Source of the DNA: an uncultured Candidatus Saccharibacteria bacterium
GTDB lineage: Bacteria > Patescibacteriota > Minisyncoccia > Phycocordibacterales > UBA9973
NCBI GenBank assembly: GCA_964423445.1
Contig: CAYREQ010000004.1
Coordinates: 2,700-66,699 of the forward strand
Length of the DNA stretch: 64,000 nucleotides
Direction: 5' to 3'
Part shown: piece by piece, positions 29,844-36,836 of the stretch
How the letters are laid out: every line of letters starts with the position of its first letter
Position numbering within the stretch: the first letter of the stretch is position 1
The notes under the pieces: generated by a model
Told to the model about the DNA's origin: nothing
Seen by the model: only the letters and a program-made list of their open reading frames with translations
Database searches by the model: none
Translations under genes and position numbers: made by a program

Positions 29844-29879
29844 ATAATTAATTTTATTAAGAGAGTAATAATAAATTTG

Positions 29880-29950
29880 TGCGGGGTAAGGGAATCGAAC
29901 CCTTGACATCAGTTTGGAAAACTGAAGTTATACCATTTAACTAACCCCGC
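29880..29950 (-). tRNA. tRNA-Trp (anticodon CCA)
   Basis: Hand-folded cloverleaf with acceptor GCGGGGT/ACCCCGC, anticodon stem-loop CAGTT-TTCCAAA-AACTG and T-arm GGTTCGATTCC. Confidence 0.75.
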
Positions 29951-30004: not shown

Positions 30005-30847
30005 TTAAACTTTTGGTTTAATTAATTTTGAATATGTTTCATTTTCTAAAATCATATCCTCCAAGGCTTTAGCTATGCCCATTATTTTTGTCGGATAATT
30101 TACAGATTCTTTTACTTTACAGTTTTTTACATATTCATTTATGTCTCCATTATATTTAAAAAAGTCTCCATTTTTTCCGCTAGGTCTTTCGAGCACATAG
30201 CCTTCTCCCCTATTGTAAGCCAGAAAAGCCCAGAGCCATGCATCACTATCATTTACCGAAACTCCGATTTCATTTCCACATTTTTTAGCTAAATTTTTTA
30301 ATAATTTTAAATATTTACAAGCTGCTTCTGTGGTCTCTCTTATGTCTTTGGTATTTTTTATGCCAAATCTTTTTGCGGTGTCTGGTATAAACTGCCAAAT
30401 TCCAGCAGCGCTTGATCCATGATTAAGTGCATTTTTATTCCAATAAGATTCAGTCATAGCTAAAAATATCAGTTCATTTGGTACACCCTCTCTTTTAAAA
30501 ATATCAGATACTATCTCAAGATCACTTTGATTTTTTTTACTTGAATCTAGTAACCTAGTCCACCCATCTTTTAGAGATTGGTAATTGTCCCCTCCTTTTA
30601 TGTGCCTTTTATACCAGTAATCTACTTTTTCTAAAAATTCTTTTCCTTGGTTTGGAATTACTTCTTTTTTAGTCAGTAAATCATTTATGATTTTTTCTCT
30701 AATTATATTCCCTGTTTCATTTGTATCAGGTATTACTTTATTAGTCTCGGCCGCTAAAGCAGAACTAGCAATAGCAGTACCAGCTAGAGCTCCTCCTAGT
30801 TTTTTTAGAAATTCCCTTCTTCCCATGTTTGAAGGTCCATTTTCCAT
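30005..30847 (-). CDS. Lytic transglycosylase (SLT/GH23 domain) with a Tat-type signal peptide
   Basis: RREFLKKLGGALAGTAIASSALA twin-arginine signal, and an SLT catalytic region ESYWNKNA...SAAGIWQFIPDTAKRFG. Confidence 0.8.
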   Translation of the reverse strand: MENGPSNMGRREFLKKLGGALAGTAIASSALAAETNKVIPDTNETGNIIREKIINDLLTKKEVIPNQGKEFLEKVDYWYKRHIKGGDNYQSLKDGWTRLLDSSKKNQSDLEIVSDIFKREGVPNELIFLAMTESYWNKNALNHGSSAAGIWQFIPDTAKRFGIKNTKDIRETTEAACKYLKLLKNLAKKCGNEIGVSVNDSDAWLWAFLAYNRGEGYVLERPSGKNGDFFKYNGDINEYVKNCKVKESVNYPTKIMGIAKALEDMILENETYSKLIKPKV

Positions 30848-30848
30848 G

Positions 30849-30919
30849 TCGGGCTGCTGGGAATCGAACCCAGTCTAAACGCTCCCAAAGCGCTTGTACT
30901 ACCGGTATACTACAGCCCG
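30849..30919 (-). tRNA. tRNA-Pro (anticodon UGG)
   Basis: Acceptor CGGGCTG/CAGCCCG, anticodon loop TTTGGGA and T-arm GGGTTCGATTCCC. Confidence 0.7.
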
Positions 30920-31678: not shown

Positions 31679-31750
31679 GTGCACCCGGAGGGATTCGAAC
31701 CCCCAACGACGGTTCCGAAGACCGGCGTGATATCCATTTCACTACGGGTG
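31679..31750 (-). tRNA. tRNA-Arg (anticodon UCG)
   Basis: Acceptor GCACCCG/CGGGTGC, D-arm GTGA..TCAC, anticodon loop CTTCGGA and T-arm GGGGGTTCGAATCCC. Confidence 0.7.
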
Positions 31751-31954
31751 CATTTAAAATAATTATACATTACTTTTATTAAATAACATAATATTATTAT
31801 ATAGTAATACTAAAATAGAAATTGCAATATATTCAATATAGTATTATAATTATTAAGTTAAAAATTTATTTGGTAACACTATATAGTGTTGGTTTGATGG
31901 TTTATCGTGTCATAAAGGCATATTAGTAAGTTAAAATTTAATAAATAACATAAT

Positions 31955-32025
31955 GCGGTGTTGGTTTAGTGGTAGAACACGTCCTTGCCAAGGATGAGAC
32001 AGGAGTTCGATTCTCCTACGCCGCA
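31955..32025 (+). tRNA. tRNA-Gly (anticodon GCC)
   Basis: Acceptor GCGGTGT/ACGCCGC, anticodon stem-loop CGTCC-TTGCCAA-GGATG and T-arm AGGAGTTCGATTCTCCT. Confidence 0.8.
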
Positions 32026-32036
32026 CAATTTCCAAA

Positions 32037-33596
32037 ATGGAAATAAATACTAAAAACTTAATAAAAAACATACCAGAGTATGTTTCATATGTAACACAAA
32101 CTCTTGAAAAGGGTGGTTTTGAGGCTCATCTAGTAGGTGGGTGTGTTCGTGACCTTTTAATGAATAGAACTCCAAAAGATTGGGATATTACCACAAATGC
32201 CACACCCGAAGAGATTATTGGGCTTTTTGAGAAAACTGTGTATGAAAACACTTTTGGTACAGTAGGGGTTTGTGTTCCATATGAAACACCAAATAGAGAT
32301 GTTATTCATGAAACATCCGAAGGTAATGTTGCACGTGAAACACCTGAATATCACATAATAGAGGTTACTCCTTTTAGATTAGAAGCTAAATATACGGATT
32401 TTAGACACCCAGATGAGATAAAATTTAGTAAAAATCTTGAAGATGACCTAAAAAGACGTGATTTTACTATAAATGCTATGTCTTATAGACTAAAAACCCC
32501 TGTCTCAGAAGAAAATAGTATAACGGACATATTTGGAGGAATAAAGGACATAGAGAATAAGCTCTTACGGACAGTGGGTGATGCTGATGCCAGGTTTGGC
32601 GAAGATGCACTTCGTATGCTCCGAGCTATACGTTTTGCTGTGGAACTTGATTTCACAATTTCACATGAAACGGGGGAGAGTATTTTAAAAAATTCAGATT
32701 TAATAAAAAATATTTCTGCTGAAAGAATTCATGATGAATTTGTAAAAATAATAAATTCAAAAAATGGAAGTGCAGGAATTGTAATGCTACAAAAATTTGG
32801 ATTACTAAAAAATATAATTCCTGAATTAGAAGAGGGTATTGGTTGCATGCAATCAGGGGAGCATGTGTATGACGTGTGGCAACACTTACTATATGCGATG
32901 CAACATGCGATAGACAAGGATTGGCCTATGCCTACGAGACTAGCTGCTTTGTTTCACGATATAGGTAAACCAAAGAGCAGGAGAGAAGAGAGCAGAATTG
33001 GTAAGAAAAAATATACCTTTTATGGCCATGAAGTGATCAGTGCCCGTATGGCAAAAAAGATAATGGAGAGGCTAAAATTCTCTAGAAAAGAGATTGATTT
33101 GGTATCCAAGCTTGTGCGTAATCATATGTTTTTTTCTGATACAGAGTTGATTACTTTGTCAGCTGTGCGCAGAATAATCACAAAAATAGGCAAAGAGCAT
33201 ATCTGGGATTTGATGAATTTGCGTGAATGCGACAGGGTAGGGACTAATAAAAAAGAGACTTCATATAGACTTCGCAAATACCATGCCATGATAGAAGAAG
33301 CACTGCGAGATCCGATATCTGTATCTCAGCTAAAAATAAACGGGGAGTACATGATGAATAATCTCGGAATAAAAGCTGGACCTAGGATGGGCTGGATATT
33401 AAATGCACTTTTAGAAGAAGTACTCGATGCTCCTGAAAAAAATTCTGTAGACCATTTATCTGATTTAGTGAAATCTCTAAACATGCTAGGAGATGGAGAG
33501 CTCAGGGCTCTCGGCGAAAGAGGTAAAGAAAAAAGGGAAGAAGTAGAAGAGCGTGAAGTAGCCAAGCTACACCAAAAACACGGTATTAAAAAATAA
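32037..33596 (+). CDS. cca: CCA-adding tRNA nucleotidyltransferase with a C-terminal HD domain
   Basis: Pol-beta NTase head GGCVRDLLMNRTPKDWDITT and RRDFTINAM, with an HD motif LAALFHDIGKP. Confidence 0.85.
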   Translation: MEINTKNLIKNIPEYVSYVTQTLEKGGFEAHLVGGCVRDLLMNRTPKDWDITTNATPEEIIGLFEKTVYENTFGTVGVCVPYETPNRDVIHETSEGNVARETPEYHIIEVTPFRLEAKYTDFRHPDEIKFSKNLEDDLKRRDFTINAMSYRLKTPVSEENSITDIFGGIKDIENKLLRTVGDADARFGEDALRMLRAIRFAVELDFTISHETGESILKNSDLIKNISAERIHDEFVKIINSKNGSAGIVMLQKFGLLKNIIPELEEGIGCMQSGEHVYDVWQHLLYAMQHAIDKDWPMPTRLAALFHDIGKPKSRREESRIGKKKYTFYGHEVISARMAKKIMERLKFSRKEIDLVSKLVRNHMFFSDTELITLSAVRRIITKIGKEHIWDLMNLRECDRVGTNKKETSYRLRKYHAMIEEALRDPISVSQLKINGEYMMNNLGIKAGPRMGWILNALLEEVLDAPEKNSVDHLSDLVKSLNMLGDGELRALGERGKEKREEVEEREVAKLHQKHGIKK

Positions 33597-33635
33597 TATT
33601 TGTGTACTTGGTGAATTAAAACTATAATAAAATAT

Positions 33636-35060
33636 ATGGCAATGAATTTTGAAAAACTACCTACACAGTCTAATGAAAAACTCATCCCTCCAGGCGAAAA
33701 AGCAGAAGTCTCAAAAAGAAAGTTTGGAATGATGGAAGACTTGAAAGAGGGGAAACTAGATAATATAAGTACAAAAGAGAGGCCAACGGTGATAGATTTT
33801 CAAGGTTTACCTGAAGGTTCTACTGAGCAAGATTTTTTGAAATGGATAGAGCGTGAGATTCAAATCAGCCCTGATATAATTTTAGGAAAAAACAAAGAAG
33901 AATCTGGCCCTACATATAGACTGCTCAACCATGCTTTTAAAGAAGCAAAAGTTTTTTTGAAAGATACTCTAAAATACTCTGATAGAGATCTATCCATAGG
34001 ACCAAAGTCTATTTCCTCCGAAAAAGATATTTTTGATCTTTTGAGAAATACGACTCTGGTAAAAGAAAATAGAAGAGGGCTCTCTAGAGCTCCACAATAC
34101 TGCCGATTGGTAAAAGCTACTATCGTGGCCTATGAAACTCTAAAACATGAAGCCGAGCTATTAAAGGAAACTACAGAAAACTTTGAAAACTCTCTAATCT
34201 CATCTGTTTCAAAAAATAAAACTGAACTTTCACCCCTTGTATTTTTAAGTGAAGACAATAAGAAAAAGAAAAAATTCTATGCGAGTGGAGATGGTACTAT
34301 AAATGGTGAAATAACTTTTCGTGGAAAAGACATAAATAAAGCAATGCTACGCTTTGTGACTAGGGCAGACTCTAGCGCTAAAGAAGCATTGAAAGATGGT
34401 ATCGCTTGTAGAATAACTATCGAAAAAGAAGATGCGAGAAAACTAATACCTATTTTATGTGAGTGGTTGAATAAAAAAATGAGTGTAGATTTTGTAAGAA
34501 TTTCAAACCAATCTTTTTTTACAAAAGAAGATATGGAGCAATTGGAAAAATCATTAAGAAAAGACCCCGAAAATAAAATGGATTTTAGATTAAAAGATTC
34601 TAGTTTGGATTCTACTTCCATGGGAGATTTTAAATCTGTAAAAATTCTAGGTATCTTGCAATCTTCTGAATCACAATCAAAGAAAAATTATTCTAAACAA
34701 TTTGAAATTCAATTTGTAACCCCAGGAAATAAAAACGAAAAAGGAAAAATGCATCACAGCGTGTATGATGTAGTGAAATTGGTAAATGCTCGCACTAGAC
34801 TAGATGGAGGTTGCCCTGAGCATGTATTTGAAGAGTTTGTAAAAGAAGCTAGTATCGAATCTGGAATAAGCGTAGCTACAATAATGAAATACTTATTGGA
34901 AGCAAAGAATGCTCCGATTGTAAAAATCTACAAAAAAAATAAGGCAGGGATCAAAAGTGGCAACCCTTCTTATGTGGCACATTCTGTATATACCCGCTGG
35001 GATGAATTTGGTTGGGTAGACGATTCTCTAATAAAAGACGTAGAGAACGCAAAGAAATAA
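33636..35060 (+). CDS. Hypothetical protein; the central region weakly resembles a RelA/SpoT-type nucleotidyltransferase fold
   Basis: Motifs KDGIACRITIE (cf. DxxGxRVI), ARKLIPILCEW (cf. YRALGxxHxLW) and FEIQFVT (cf. EIQIRT), separated by inserts. This is inference only. Confidence 0.4.
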   Translation: MAMNFEKLPTQSNEKLIPPGEKAEVSKRKFGMMEDLKEGKLDNISTKERPTVIDFQGLPEGSTEQDFLKWIEREIQISPDIILGKNKEESGPTYRLLNHAFKEAKVFLKDTLKYSDRDLSIGPKSISSEKDIFDLLRNTTLVKENRRGLSRAPQYCRLVKATIVAYETLKHEAELLKETTENFENSLISSVSKNKTELSPLVFLSEDNKKKKKFYASGDGTINGEITFRGKDINKAMLRFVTRADSSAKEALKDGIACRITIEKEDARKLIPILCEWLNKKMSVDFVRISNQSFFTKEDMEQLEKSLRKDPENKMDFRLKDSSLDSTSMGDFKSVKILGILQSSESQSKKNYSKQFEIQFVTPGNKNEKGKMHHSVYDVVKLVNARTRLDGGCPEHVFEEFVKEASIESGISVATIMKYLLEAKNAPIVKIYKKNKAGIKSGNPSYVAHSVYTRWDEFGWVDDSLIKDVENAKK

Positions 35061-35069
35061 TATAAATTT

Positions 35070-36836
35070 TTAAAACACTTCTTTTTGATAACAACTCTCG
35101 CAATAAACTATTTCTTTTCTATCAGGAGAATATGAAGTCTTAAATTCTTTTTCACACACAGAATCACCATGCTCGTGTTTGCTCGTATTTTTATAAACAC
35201 CATTGGAAGAAATTTGTCCCATGCACTGACATTTTCTATCACATAATTTTGCTGGATTTCTTTTTATAATCCTTTCACAATATCGGCAATTGTAGCAAAG
35301 TCTCGGAATAGCAATATTCATTTTTTTATAAAAATCAAATTCATTTTTTGTTATCTTAAATGCTTTGGTGCACTGGTGAATACAATTTCCTTCATGAGCA
35401 CAGCCAATTACTTTTTGAGTAATACTCTCATCATAAGTTACGTCCGGTAATTCATTTGTTTTTATATCAATTGTGTAATCTTTTGATATTTTTTCTCTCC
35501 ATAGATAACCTTTTTTCTCTGCTTCTTCTTTAGTGATAGGGAAAAGCTCTTGAGCTACTGTCTCATTGTAACCAAAAGGGGATAGATCGCTTGGGAAAAA
35601 ATCTCCATACTCATAAACAATGCCAACACTATTTTTATATGGCATGTCATTCATGTGTTTTATTAATTTTGGTATAAGGTTCATATATTCTTCTTTTGAA
35701 TATTGTTTATTGAATATACAATAATTTTTATTCCGAAGACCTATACAGCCAAAAAGGTTTGAGCTATTGTGACAATTATAAGAATAGAGAACATCGTGTG
35801 ATTCAAAAATAAATCTAGAGAAAAAAACTTTATTCCCTGGGTAAATAGTAGATGAGTGATAAGAATCTTGTGAATTCTTTCCAAAGTGATCACAATCATA
35901 ACAATCGCTGACTTCTGAGTATGCGAGCCATATATTTCCACAATCTTTTGCTCCACCAAAAACTTCAAAACAGTTTTGGCAATTCTTTGTCCCTTCCAAA
36001 TTATCTCCAGTGGAATTTATTGAGCGCAAAATTCTAGCATATTTATGTGGGTATTTTAATATTAATTCTTCAAATCTTTTTTTATACTCTTCAACCTGAG
36101 AAAAAGAAGTCATATCAATATTCTTCATTTTCTCTTCATAAGATTCTTTGTCTAATTGCTCATTAAAAAATACATAAGATGCATTTCTCAAATTAACTCC
36201 ACCAAAACAATTGGTACAATTTTTACAATTAAAAAGAAAAGCTGAGTCCAAACATGCTTCGGATTGCCTGCTATATAAAACCCTAGAGCAAGAAATACAG
36301 TCTACGCTCTCATAACTAAGCTCGCTCTTTGAAACCCAGTGGAGGTCTAAGCTGTCTTTTGTATTAAAAGTAAAGCTAGAATACATTACATTTTCATTAA
36401 AATCTCCACCGACGACAAGATAACAATTTTTATTTCCTTCTGTGATACTGCAATAATCACTATTTACCGGATTGATATTGAGTAAAGCTACGTCTGGCAC
36501 AGACCACCATAGATTTTTTAGTTGTTCAAAGAATGGTTTACCAAAATCTATATCTTCTCCATAAGACATTGCATCCCAAGAATCTCCCCACCAAGCCTTG
36601 TGGTCATAGACTTTCTGTTTTGAATCTGGAGAAAATATTGAAAAAATTTCTCCTTCAGCATTTGGAGCATCAGATTTTCTCTTATAAAGAGTTCTCTCAT
36701 TTCTAAAAACCATCCTGTGTTCTAATCTGCAACTAGGACATGACATAGGATAGGGGACTTTTATTTTTTCGTAAAAATTTATCTCTTGTGAACTTATTTC
36801 AAAATCTTTTTTACAACTTTTACAATTTTTCTTCAT
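35070..36836 (-). CDS. Cys-rich repeat protein with N- and C-terminal zinc-ribbon-like modules
   Basis: 588 aa with about 50 Cys. The N-terminus (CKSCKKDFEISSQEINFYEKIKVPYPMSCPSCR) and C-terminus (CTKAFKITKNEFDFYKKMNIAIPRLCYNCRYCER) share the pattern CxxFxIxxxExxFYxKxxxPxxCxxCR. Internal NCxNCFG/FGCIGLRN repeats are present. Confidence 0.45.
   Translation of the reverse strand: MKKNCKSCKKDFEISSQEINFYEKIKVPYPMSCPSCRLEHRMVFRNERTLYKRKSDAPNAEGEIFSIFSPDSKQKVYDHKAWWGDSWDAMSYGEDIDFGKPFFEQLKNLWWSVPDVALLNINPVNSDYCSITEGNKNCYLVVGGDFNENVMYSSFTFNTKDSLDLHWVSKSELSYESVDCISCSRVLYSRQSEACLDSAFLFNCKNCTNCFGGVNLRNASYVFFNEQLDKESYEEKMKNIDMTSFSQVEEYKKRFEELILKYPHKYARILRSINSTGDNLEGTKNCQNCFEVFGGAKDCGNIWLAYSEVSDCYDCDHFGKNSQDSYHSSTIYPGNKVFFSRFIFESHDVLYSYNCHNSSNLFGCIGLRNKNYCIFNKQYSKEEYMNLIPKLIKHMNDMPYKNSVGIVYEYGDFFPSDLSPFGYNETVAQELFPITKEEAEKKGYLWREKISKDYTIDIKTNELPDVTYDESITQKVIGCAHEGNCIHQCTKAFKITKNEFDFYKKMNIAIPRLCYNCRYCERIIKRNPAKLCDRKCQCMGQISSNGVYKNTSKHEHGDSVCEKEFKTSYSPDRKEIVYCESCYQKEVF

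Follow-up and report, generated by a model that had tools for sequence, protein, structure and literature searches.

In the window, that is the whole stretch of 64,000 nucleotides (nt) analysed here (contig CAYREQ010000004.1 of an uncultured Candidatus Saccharibacteria bacterium, positions 2,700 to 66,699), an open reading frame (ORF) encodes a protein of 474 amino acids (aa) whose central part (residues ~196–394) is, as judged by sequence comparison, a very divergent member of the RelA/SpoT synthetase (RSD) domain superfamily. The family formed by this protein and its homologues is probably an active, housekeeping ATP-dependent 3'-pyrophosphokinase of the RelA/SpoT homologue (RSH) superfamily. 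The catalytic superfamily itself is known; what appears to be new is a lineage-specific architecture together with a divergent acceptor site. The original prediction had proposed that the central region has a synthetase fold like that of RelA/SpoT, and this proposal is now supported by four independent kinds of evidence, namely matches to PF04607 in relatives, a profile search of the PDB, profile alignment with hhalign and structure comparison with Foldseek.

The query alone gave no usable match in Pfam, NCBIfam, PADLOC, PHROGs or the PDB (phmmer). When the 85 members of the family alignment were scanned singly against Pfam (E ≤ 1), 27 matched PF04607 (RelA_SpoT), and the next most frequent Pfam family was found in no more than three members. 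Several of the PF04607 matches extend across the whole profile. That of P0115 (26.7 bits at a cut-off of 27) covers profile positions 1–112 of 113, and P0108 and P0083 reached 26.1 and 21.1 bits; the phmmer E-values of these three proteins to the query are 3.6e-9, 8.6e-12 and 3.2e-18, respectively. A search of 177,635 distinct PDB sequences with the 85-member profile (E ≤ 10) returned two chains only, both of them RSH proteins (Bacillus subtilis YwaC, E = 0.012; Mycobacterium tuberculosis Rel, E = 0.98). A profile of the close orthologues found nothing in the PDB. Furthermore, hhalign aligned the family to 90 genuine RSH synthetase (SYNTH) domains with P = 5e-4 over 139 columns and with all five motifs in register. 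In a re-run, the real alignment scored 33.2 versus 14.8 for the reversed template and 10.6–20.3 for 20 column-shuffled templates.

The AlphaFold2 (AF2) models reached a predicted local distance difference test (pLDDT) score of 87.8 with a predicted TM-score (pTM) of 0.87 for the full-length protein, and a pLDDT of 86.2 for residues 150–394. In the core, the predicted order of elements is beta-alpha-beta-alpha-beta-beta-beta-alpha as in RSH proteins: a strand with R229, a helix, a strand after D254, a long helix, strands, a strand after F332, the strand with E357 and Q359, and the helix with H374 and Y377. In Foldseek searches, the top match of the full model was the tRNA pyrophosphokinase CapRel (7ztb; E = 6.5e-3, probability 0.75), followed by terminal deoxynucleotidyl transferase (TdT). 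The core model matched the exported small alarmone synthetase (SAS) 8vx3, TdT, CapRel and B. subtilis SAS1 (5f2v), and the named RSH chains were found within the top 18. These matches to RSD enzymes are weak and only supportive. Nothing significant was found in the viral structure library, in which phage Tas1 appeared at rank 8 (E = 0.85).

The motifs of the synthetase domain were examined in the columns of the 85-member alignment, and all counts given here refer to these columns in query numbering. In RSH proteins, Syn1 is the motif that binds the donor ATP by its phosphates. The corresponding stretch of the query aligns to GRPKHIYSIYRKM and to SRVKSFESIVNKL of YwaC, and RxKxxxSxxxK is present in the family, with R229 in 84 of 85 members, K231 in all of them, and Lys (72) or Arg (13) in column 239. 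At the Ser position of this motif (column 235), Ser occurs in 45, Arg in 23 and Lys in 8 members, and the query has Lys. The Asp of the RSH Syn2 motif binds Mg2+ and its Arg stacks on the adenine. DxxGxR is likewise present (D254 85/85; column 257 Gly 68, Ala 15; column 259 Arg 61, Lys 13). In the G-loop-like element, F332 (Phe in 56 and Tyr in 24 members) corresponds to the Tyr of GYxSxH that stacks on the acceptor; S328 is found in 63 and G339 in 54 members, and the His of this motif is absent. The Syn4-like element contains E357 in every member and Q359 in 79, with a variable Thr position, and the Syn5-like element H374 in 72 and Y377 in 75. A signature specific to the family follows, in which R388 is conserved in 83 members and G391 in 79, with three further members showing a 'W' that represents a TGA codon in recoded lineages.

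The donor-side and catalytic residues thus appear intact, as R229, K231, K/R239, D254, R259, E357, Q359, H374 and Y377 are near-invariant. The most distant members of the alignment share ~20% identity, and the invariance of catalytic residues down to this level speaks in favour of an active enzyme and against a pseudoenzyme. From the letters alone, three strings had been quoted as resembling RelA/SpoT motifs, and all three were located in the protein (KDGIACRITIE, residues 253–263; ARKLIPILCEW, 267–277; FEIQFVT, 356–362). The first and the third are in register with the RSH motifs; the second corresponds merely to a helix at the same position and not residue by residue. It had also been suggested that non-conservation of the motif residues among orthologues would speak against the idea, and K231, D254 and E357 turned out to be invariant. 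Three further fitting motifs had been overlooked at that time, namely R229-G-K231...R239, G330-D-F332 (corresponding to GY in the G-loop) and H374-x-x-Y377 (corresponding to HxxYK).

The active site seems, by the same alignments, to be remodelled on its acceptor side, and an acceptor other than GDP or GTP is therefore conceivable. This remodelling is also the source of several points which weigh against the favoured assignment. An insertion of roughly 25–40 aa stands in place of the acceptor-side element DYIxxPK / EFDD-RFKD; the inserted segment, residues 282–324, is the least conserved part of the core. Phe occupies the aromatic G-loop position in the query and in most of the family, and in FaRel2 the exchange Y128F has been used as a catalytically impaired variant (PMC11782079). 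Moreover, the Arg of EIQIRT is replaced by Val (column 361, 61/85), and family members have Asp or Glu where HxxYK has Lys. Further such points concern the homology itself. The gathering score of PF04607 (27 bits) is reached by no family member, and the query does not match this model even at E ≤ 10. The Foldseek matches are all weak (E 6.5e-3 to 0.45; TM-scores 0.18–0.35). A hidden Markov model built from long-RSH SYNTH domains only failed to distinguish family members from reversed decoys; it was too narrow for this purpose and was dropped as evidence.

In the favoured reaction, the beta,gamma-pyrophosphate of ATP would be passed to the 3'-OH of an acceptor, the base of which would stack on the conserved aromatic residue F/Y332. 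The product might be a nucleotide of the (p)ppGpp or (p)ppApp type with a housekeeping or regulatory role, and the N- and C-terminal regions might serve as regulatory or partner-binding modules. An acceptor of the alarmone type, i.e. a nucleotide, is favoured, since the gene has the behaviour of a core gene and lacks an antitoxin. The housekeeping character is deduced from the recurrence of the locus in 12 genomes, from the housekeeping-type neighbours of distant members and from the lack of PADLOC and PHROG matches. These neighbours are genes for RNase HII, the ribosomal proteins L31 and L21, a tRNA m1G methyltransferase and Sua5/YrdC, or genes of the mraW/ftsI/murE type. No conserved small neighbour or antitoxin-like gene was detected in the 12 close and five distant loci, and the PADLOC and PHROG scans revealed no defence or phage context. 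The gene is chromosomal, vertically inherited and without a conserved partner. Across the 12 loci, its product shows 37–52% identity and that of cca, the gene of the CCA-adding enzyme, 62–77%; thus, the RSD-like gene evolves faster.

A word-indexed search with the query yielded 50 homologues, most of them unnamed; those named by their source are nearly all 'hypothetical' and labelled Paceibacterota, Pacebacteria or Patescibacteria. Orthologue P0011 (JGI) carries the source label 'frataxin-like iron-binding protein CyaY', which is spurious and unsupported by the sequence analyses. When 1.84 billion cluster representatives were searched exhaustively with phmmer (E ≤ 1e-3), 100 representatives at 50% clustering were obtained, and full-length orthologues share 37–75% identity with the query. 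The representatives are mostly 440–510 aa long and align across most of the query, so that the three-part architecture is conserved. The layout is fixed in these alignments: the RSD core (~200 aa) is preceded by an N-terminal helical region (~195 aa) and followed by a C-terminal module (~80 aa). A profile search of a 5.8-billion-protein database added no new members and reached no annotated RSH proteins, and a profile-based search for related loci returned 10 loci, all of the Paceibacterota type. In these searches, the family was found only in Patescibacteria (candidate phyla radiation, CPR). No model covering it exists in Pfam (2025 copy) or NCBIfam (2026), and literature searches turned up no account of an RSH-like family from Patescibacteria. 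Annotated (p)ppGpp genes are reported for most Saccharibacteria (PMC6031116), which means that canonical RSH proteins are present in some CPR lineages.

The N-terminal region was confidently modelled and contains the conserved residues T51, D54 (93%), C156 (95%) and E167; no Pfam or PDB match was obtained for residues 1–195. The Rel-like layout had prompted the idea of a degenerate HD hydrolase in this place. This idea was rejected, as a conserved His/Asp signature is absent, an hhalign comparison with residues 1–387 of RelA matched the SYNTH motifs only, and Rel N-terminal structures were missing from the top 50 Foldseek matches. The C-terminal module carries the conserved residues Y446, Y452, R454 and W455. 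Weak Foldseek matches to winged-helix and helix-turn-helix proteins (ranks 17 and 44) suggest, with low confidence, that it is possibly winged-helix-like.

The SYNTH domains of the long RSH proteins RelA, Rel and SpoT (PF04607) share with the family the motif order RxKxxxSxxxK, DxxGxR, aromatic G-loop, ExQ and HxxY as well as the order of secondary-structure elements, and the SYNTH-like core begins near residue 200 as in the N-terminal halves of Rel proteins. In contrast to long RSH proteins, neither the query nor the 85 members match HD_4, TGS or ACT; the family possesses the ARTRLDGGC signature, its N- and C-terminal regions are unrelated, and its Pfam scores are below threshold. Like the SAS proteins (RelP/YwaC, RelQ/YjbM, the exported SAS 8vx3 and Tas1), it contains one catalytic RSD and no hydrolase domain. 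The best PDB sequence match of the family profile is YwaC, and the top Foldseek matches of the core model include 8vx3 and 5f2v. However, the protein is twice as long as a SAS (474 aa versus about 200–230 aa) and carries conserved extra domains, two thirds of the family have Phe in place of the G-loop Tyr, and features of oligomerisation or secretion are not evident.

Patescibacteria account for a large share of bacterial diversity and have tiny genomes. To our knowledge, starvation sensing and growth regulation in the CPR are essentially not understood. A conserved 'hypothetical' CPR protein with an apparently complete donor-side RelA/SpoT signature, a remodelled acceptor side and new flanking domains is therefore a testable candidate for alarmone signalling or for RNA modification of the RSH type in these organisms. 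The family would also widen the sequence space of the RSH superfamily beyond the reach of the Pfam and NCBIfam models. Surveys based on such models probably miss proteins of this kind, and RSH enzymes in the CPR would consequently be undercounted.

Another explanation is that the protein is a pyrophosphokinase of the tRNA 3'-CCA end, with a chemistry like that of the toxic SAS (toxSAS) enzymes, and acts as a resident regulator of tRNA charging that is functionally coupled to the cca product, the HD domain of which could take off the 3'-pyrophosphate. This is considered unlikely. CapRel, the best Foldseek match of the full model, is such an enzyme; however, the preference for CapRel over SAS proteins is weak and was reversed in the domain-only search. 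Several basic acceptor-side residues of alarmone synthetases are lost in the family, and in tRNA-targeting toxSAS such as FaRel2 the positive patch on the acceptor side is likewise much smaller than in alarmone synthetases (PMC11782079). The large extra domains, including the possibly winged-helix-like C-terminus, would also be compatible with a tRNA substrate, but the protein is not strongly basic (computed isoelectric point 8.96; family median 8.4). Pyrophosphorylation of tRNA can be reversed by HD-type hydrolases (bioRxiv 10.1101/2021.04.30.441581). Moreover, in 12 distinct Paceibacterota loci cca is the immediate upstream neighbour in the same orientation, while the genes downstream differ (a Cys-rich protein of ~560–590 aa, TMEM175, murI, xthA), and the four tRNA genes nearby all lack an encoded 3' CCA; CAA or CAT follows the discriminator base instead.

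The pairing with cca is, on the other hand, contained in a longer block (M23 peptidase, ZIP, UPF0102, cca, RSD-like gene), of which some upstream members are absent in a few of the 12 loci, and may therefore be plain synteny. An ORF on the opposite strand lies between cca and the RSD-like gene in L002, and the two matches are ~1 kb apart in L016. A recognisable cca near the gene was found in none of the five distant members examined. The adjacency, first considered as a functional linkage, was downgraded for these reasons and represents lineage-restricted synteny, which is suggestive at most. The original prediction had placed the ORF downstream of cca and close to genes of tRNA-Arg, tRNA-Gly and tRNA-Pro, which agrees with the coordinates in Table 1 and the four tRNA genes listed there, and its caution that this context might be coincidental was well founded. 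A more specific form of the tRNA explanation, in which a resident, non-toxin enzyme reversibly caps uncharged tRNAs at their CCA end, the HD domain of the cca product removes the cap, and both act as a housekeeping switch of tRNA availability in place of the classical ribosome-dependent stringent response of larger genomes, is regarded as improbable for these reduced genomes.

It is similarly improbable that the RSD fold lacks pyrophosphokinase activity and serves as a pseudoenzyme or scaffold, or performs another chemistry such as a nucleotidyl transfer like that of DNA polymerase beta (Pol beta). RSH domains can degenerate, as exemplified by the inactive hydrolase domain of RelA itself, and the divergent acceptor-side motifs might be read in this way. 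However, pseudoenzymes normally lose catalytic residues; here K231, D254 and E357 are invariant, and R229 and Q359 are nearly so. TdT and Pol beta recurred among the weak Foldseek matches, and the minimal alpha/beta core of nucleotidyltransferases is shared with enzymes of this type. The Pol beta signature hG[GS]...DxD is nevertheless absent, and the motif set specific to RSH proteins is present.

Still less probable is a role as toxin in a toxin-antitoxin or anti-phage system, either as a toxSAS with a separate antitoxin or as a fused, auto-inhibited protein like CapRel. The toxSAS enzymes CapRel, FaRel2 and PhRel2, which are tRNA 3'-CCA pyrophosphokinases, have the same RSD core; CapRel, the top structural match, is in addition a single polypeptide with an extra C-terminal module, and FaRel2 shares the reduced basic signature of the acceptor side. 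In CapRel, a YxxY motif occludes the ATP site (PMC11782079). The C-terminal aromatic residues Y446, Y452 and W455 could in principle do the same, but the two conserved tyrosines are spaced YxxxxxY and not YxxY. Unlike toxSAS genes, the family gene has no accompanying antitoxin gene and no conserved small neighbour, and the genes downstream differ among the loci. A fixed syntenic position across orthologues with 37–52% identity is also unlike that of mobile defence genes, and neither a defence island, a prophage, a PADLOC or PHROG match nor a significant match in the viral structure library was found.

A chance agreement of short motifs in an unrelated fold as the cause of the RelA/SpoT resemblance is extremely unlikely and effectively already refuted, since the missing significant RSH match of the query alone in Pfam or the PDB and the Foldseek E-values above 1e-3 are outweighed by the PF04607 matches of the relatives, by the restriction of the PDB matches of the family profile to RSH chains, by an hhalign result well above the reversed and shuffled controls and by the agreement of the predicted secondary-structure order with the RSD.

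Table 1. Features of the RSD-like gene and its upstream neighbourhood (positions in the window)
Feature	Position	Strand	Description or basis
RSD-like gene, whole	33636..35060	+	474 aa, ATG start; ORF list, full-length orthologues, AF2 model
N-terminal all-helical region, aa 1–195	33636..34220	+	family-specific; AF2 secondary structure, conservation
RSD-like catalytic core, aa 196–394	34221..34817	+	hhalign with controls, PF04607 in relatives, Foldseek
Syn1-like RGKDINKAMLR (R229, K231, R239)	34320..34352	+	family consensus RxKxxx[S/R]xxx[K/R]; column counts, alignments
Syn2-like KDGIACRITIE (D254, G255, R259; residues 253–263)	34392..34424	+	aligns to DLxAVRI and DIAGVRI
Variable insertion relative to RSH, aa 282–324 (extra strand, helix, strand)	34479..34607	+	gapped versus RSH profile; AF2 secondary structure
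G-loop-like element DSTSMGDFKSVKILGI (including G330-D-F332)	34608..34655	+	aligns to NGYRSLH and mYQSLH
Syn4-like KQFEIQFVT (E357, Q359)	34695..34721	+	aligns to EIQIRT
Syn5-like HHSVYDVVK (H374, Y377)	34752..34778	+	aligns to HxxY of AAHWxYK
ARTRLDGGCPE signature (R388, G391)	34788..34820	+	family-specific, without RSH counterpart
C-terminal ~80 aa (aa 396–474; three helices, beta-hairpin, helices)	34821..35060	+	AF2 secondary structure
cca, class II CCA-adding enzyme	32037..33596	+	Pfam PolyA_pol, PolyA_pol_RNAbd, HD, tRNA_NucTran2_2; NCBIfam
tRNA-Gly(GCC)	31955-32026	+	ends 10 nt before cca start codon
tRNA-Arg(TCG)	31679-31751	-	
tRNA-Pro(TGG)	30848-30919	-	
tRNA-Gly(TCC)	29879-29950	-	

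Two distant members are encoded on low-GC contigs and contain in-frame TGA codons, which the database translations read as Trp. In P0137 (L023 5001–6551; 29% GC), eight of the 12 TGA codons fall on columns in which Gly is the commonest residue (columns of G257, G339, G370 and G391). This pattern indicates, from the alignment, the use of genetic code 25, so the family would extend to TGA-recoded, low-GC lineages besides Paceibacteria. Beside this protein, P0132 (L010 6001–7401; 21% GC) has eight in-frame TGA codons, for which Trp and Gly columns are mixed.

Three distant members overlap an adjacent unannotated ORF (L022 4642–6146, L024 2842–5845 and L009 96–2887). The overlapping ORF lies upstream and comprises 126 aa beside the N-terminally short P0129 and 335 aa beside the 682-aa protein P0128; downstream of P0064 it comprises 428 aa. 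They may represent operon partners, or variants in which the N-terminal region is split or fused.

The gene cca ends 39 nt upstream of the RSD-like gene. No terminator-like site was found in this spacer (33597–33635). Within it, a perfect TATAAT box ends 7 nt before the ATG, and a Shine-Dalgarno-like purine run is absent. These features are compatible with read-through from cca as well as with a transcript with a very short leader. The CCA-less tRNA-Gly(GCC) may be co-transcribed with cca, the enzyme of which would complete it.

Convergent with the RSD-like gene, a 588-aa Cys-rich protein is encoded on the minus strand (35070–36836). It shows weak treble-clef zinc-finger matches at its two ends (zf_Tbcl, E = 0.0077, residues 4–40; zf_Tbcl_2, E = 0.03, residues 561–586), matches no family as a whole and occurs with 35–42% identity in many, not all, Paceibacterota loci; in L004, two copies flank the region. 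Between the genes of tRNA-Gly and tRNA-Pro, a further ORF on the minus strand (30005–30847) encodes a 280-aa protein with a twin-arginine-like N-terminal signal (RREFLKKLGGALAGTAIASSALA).

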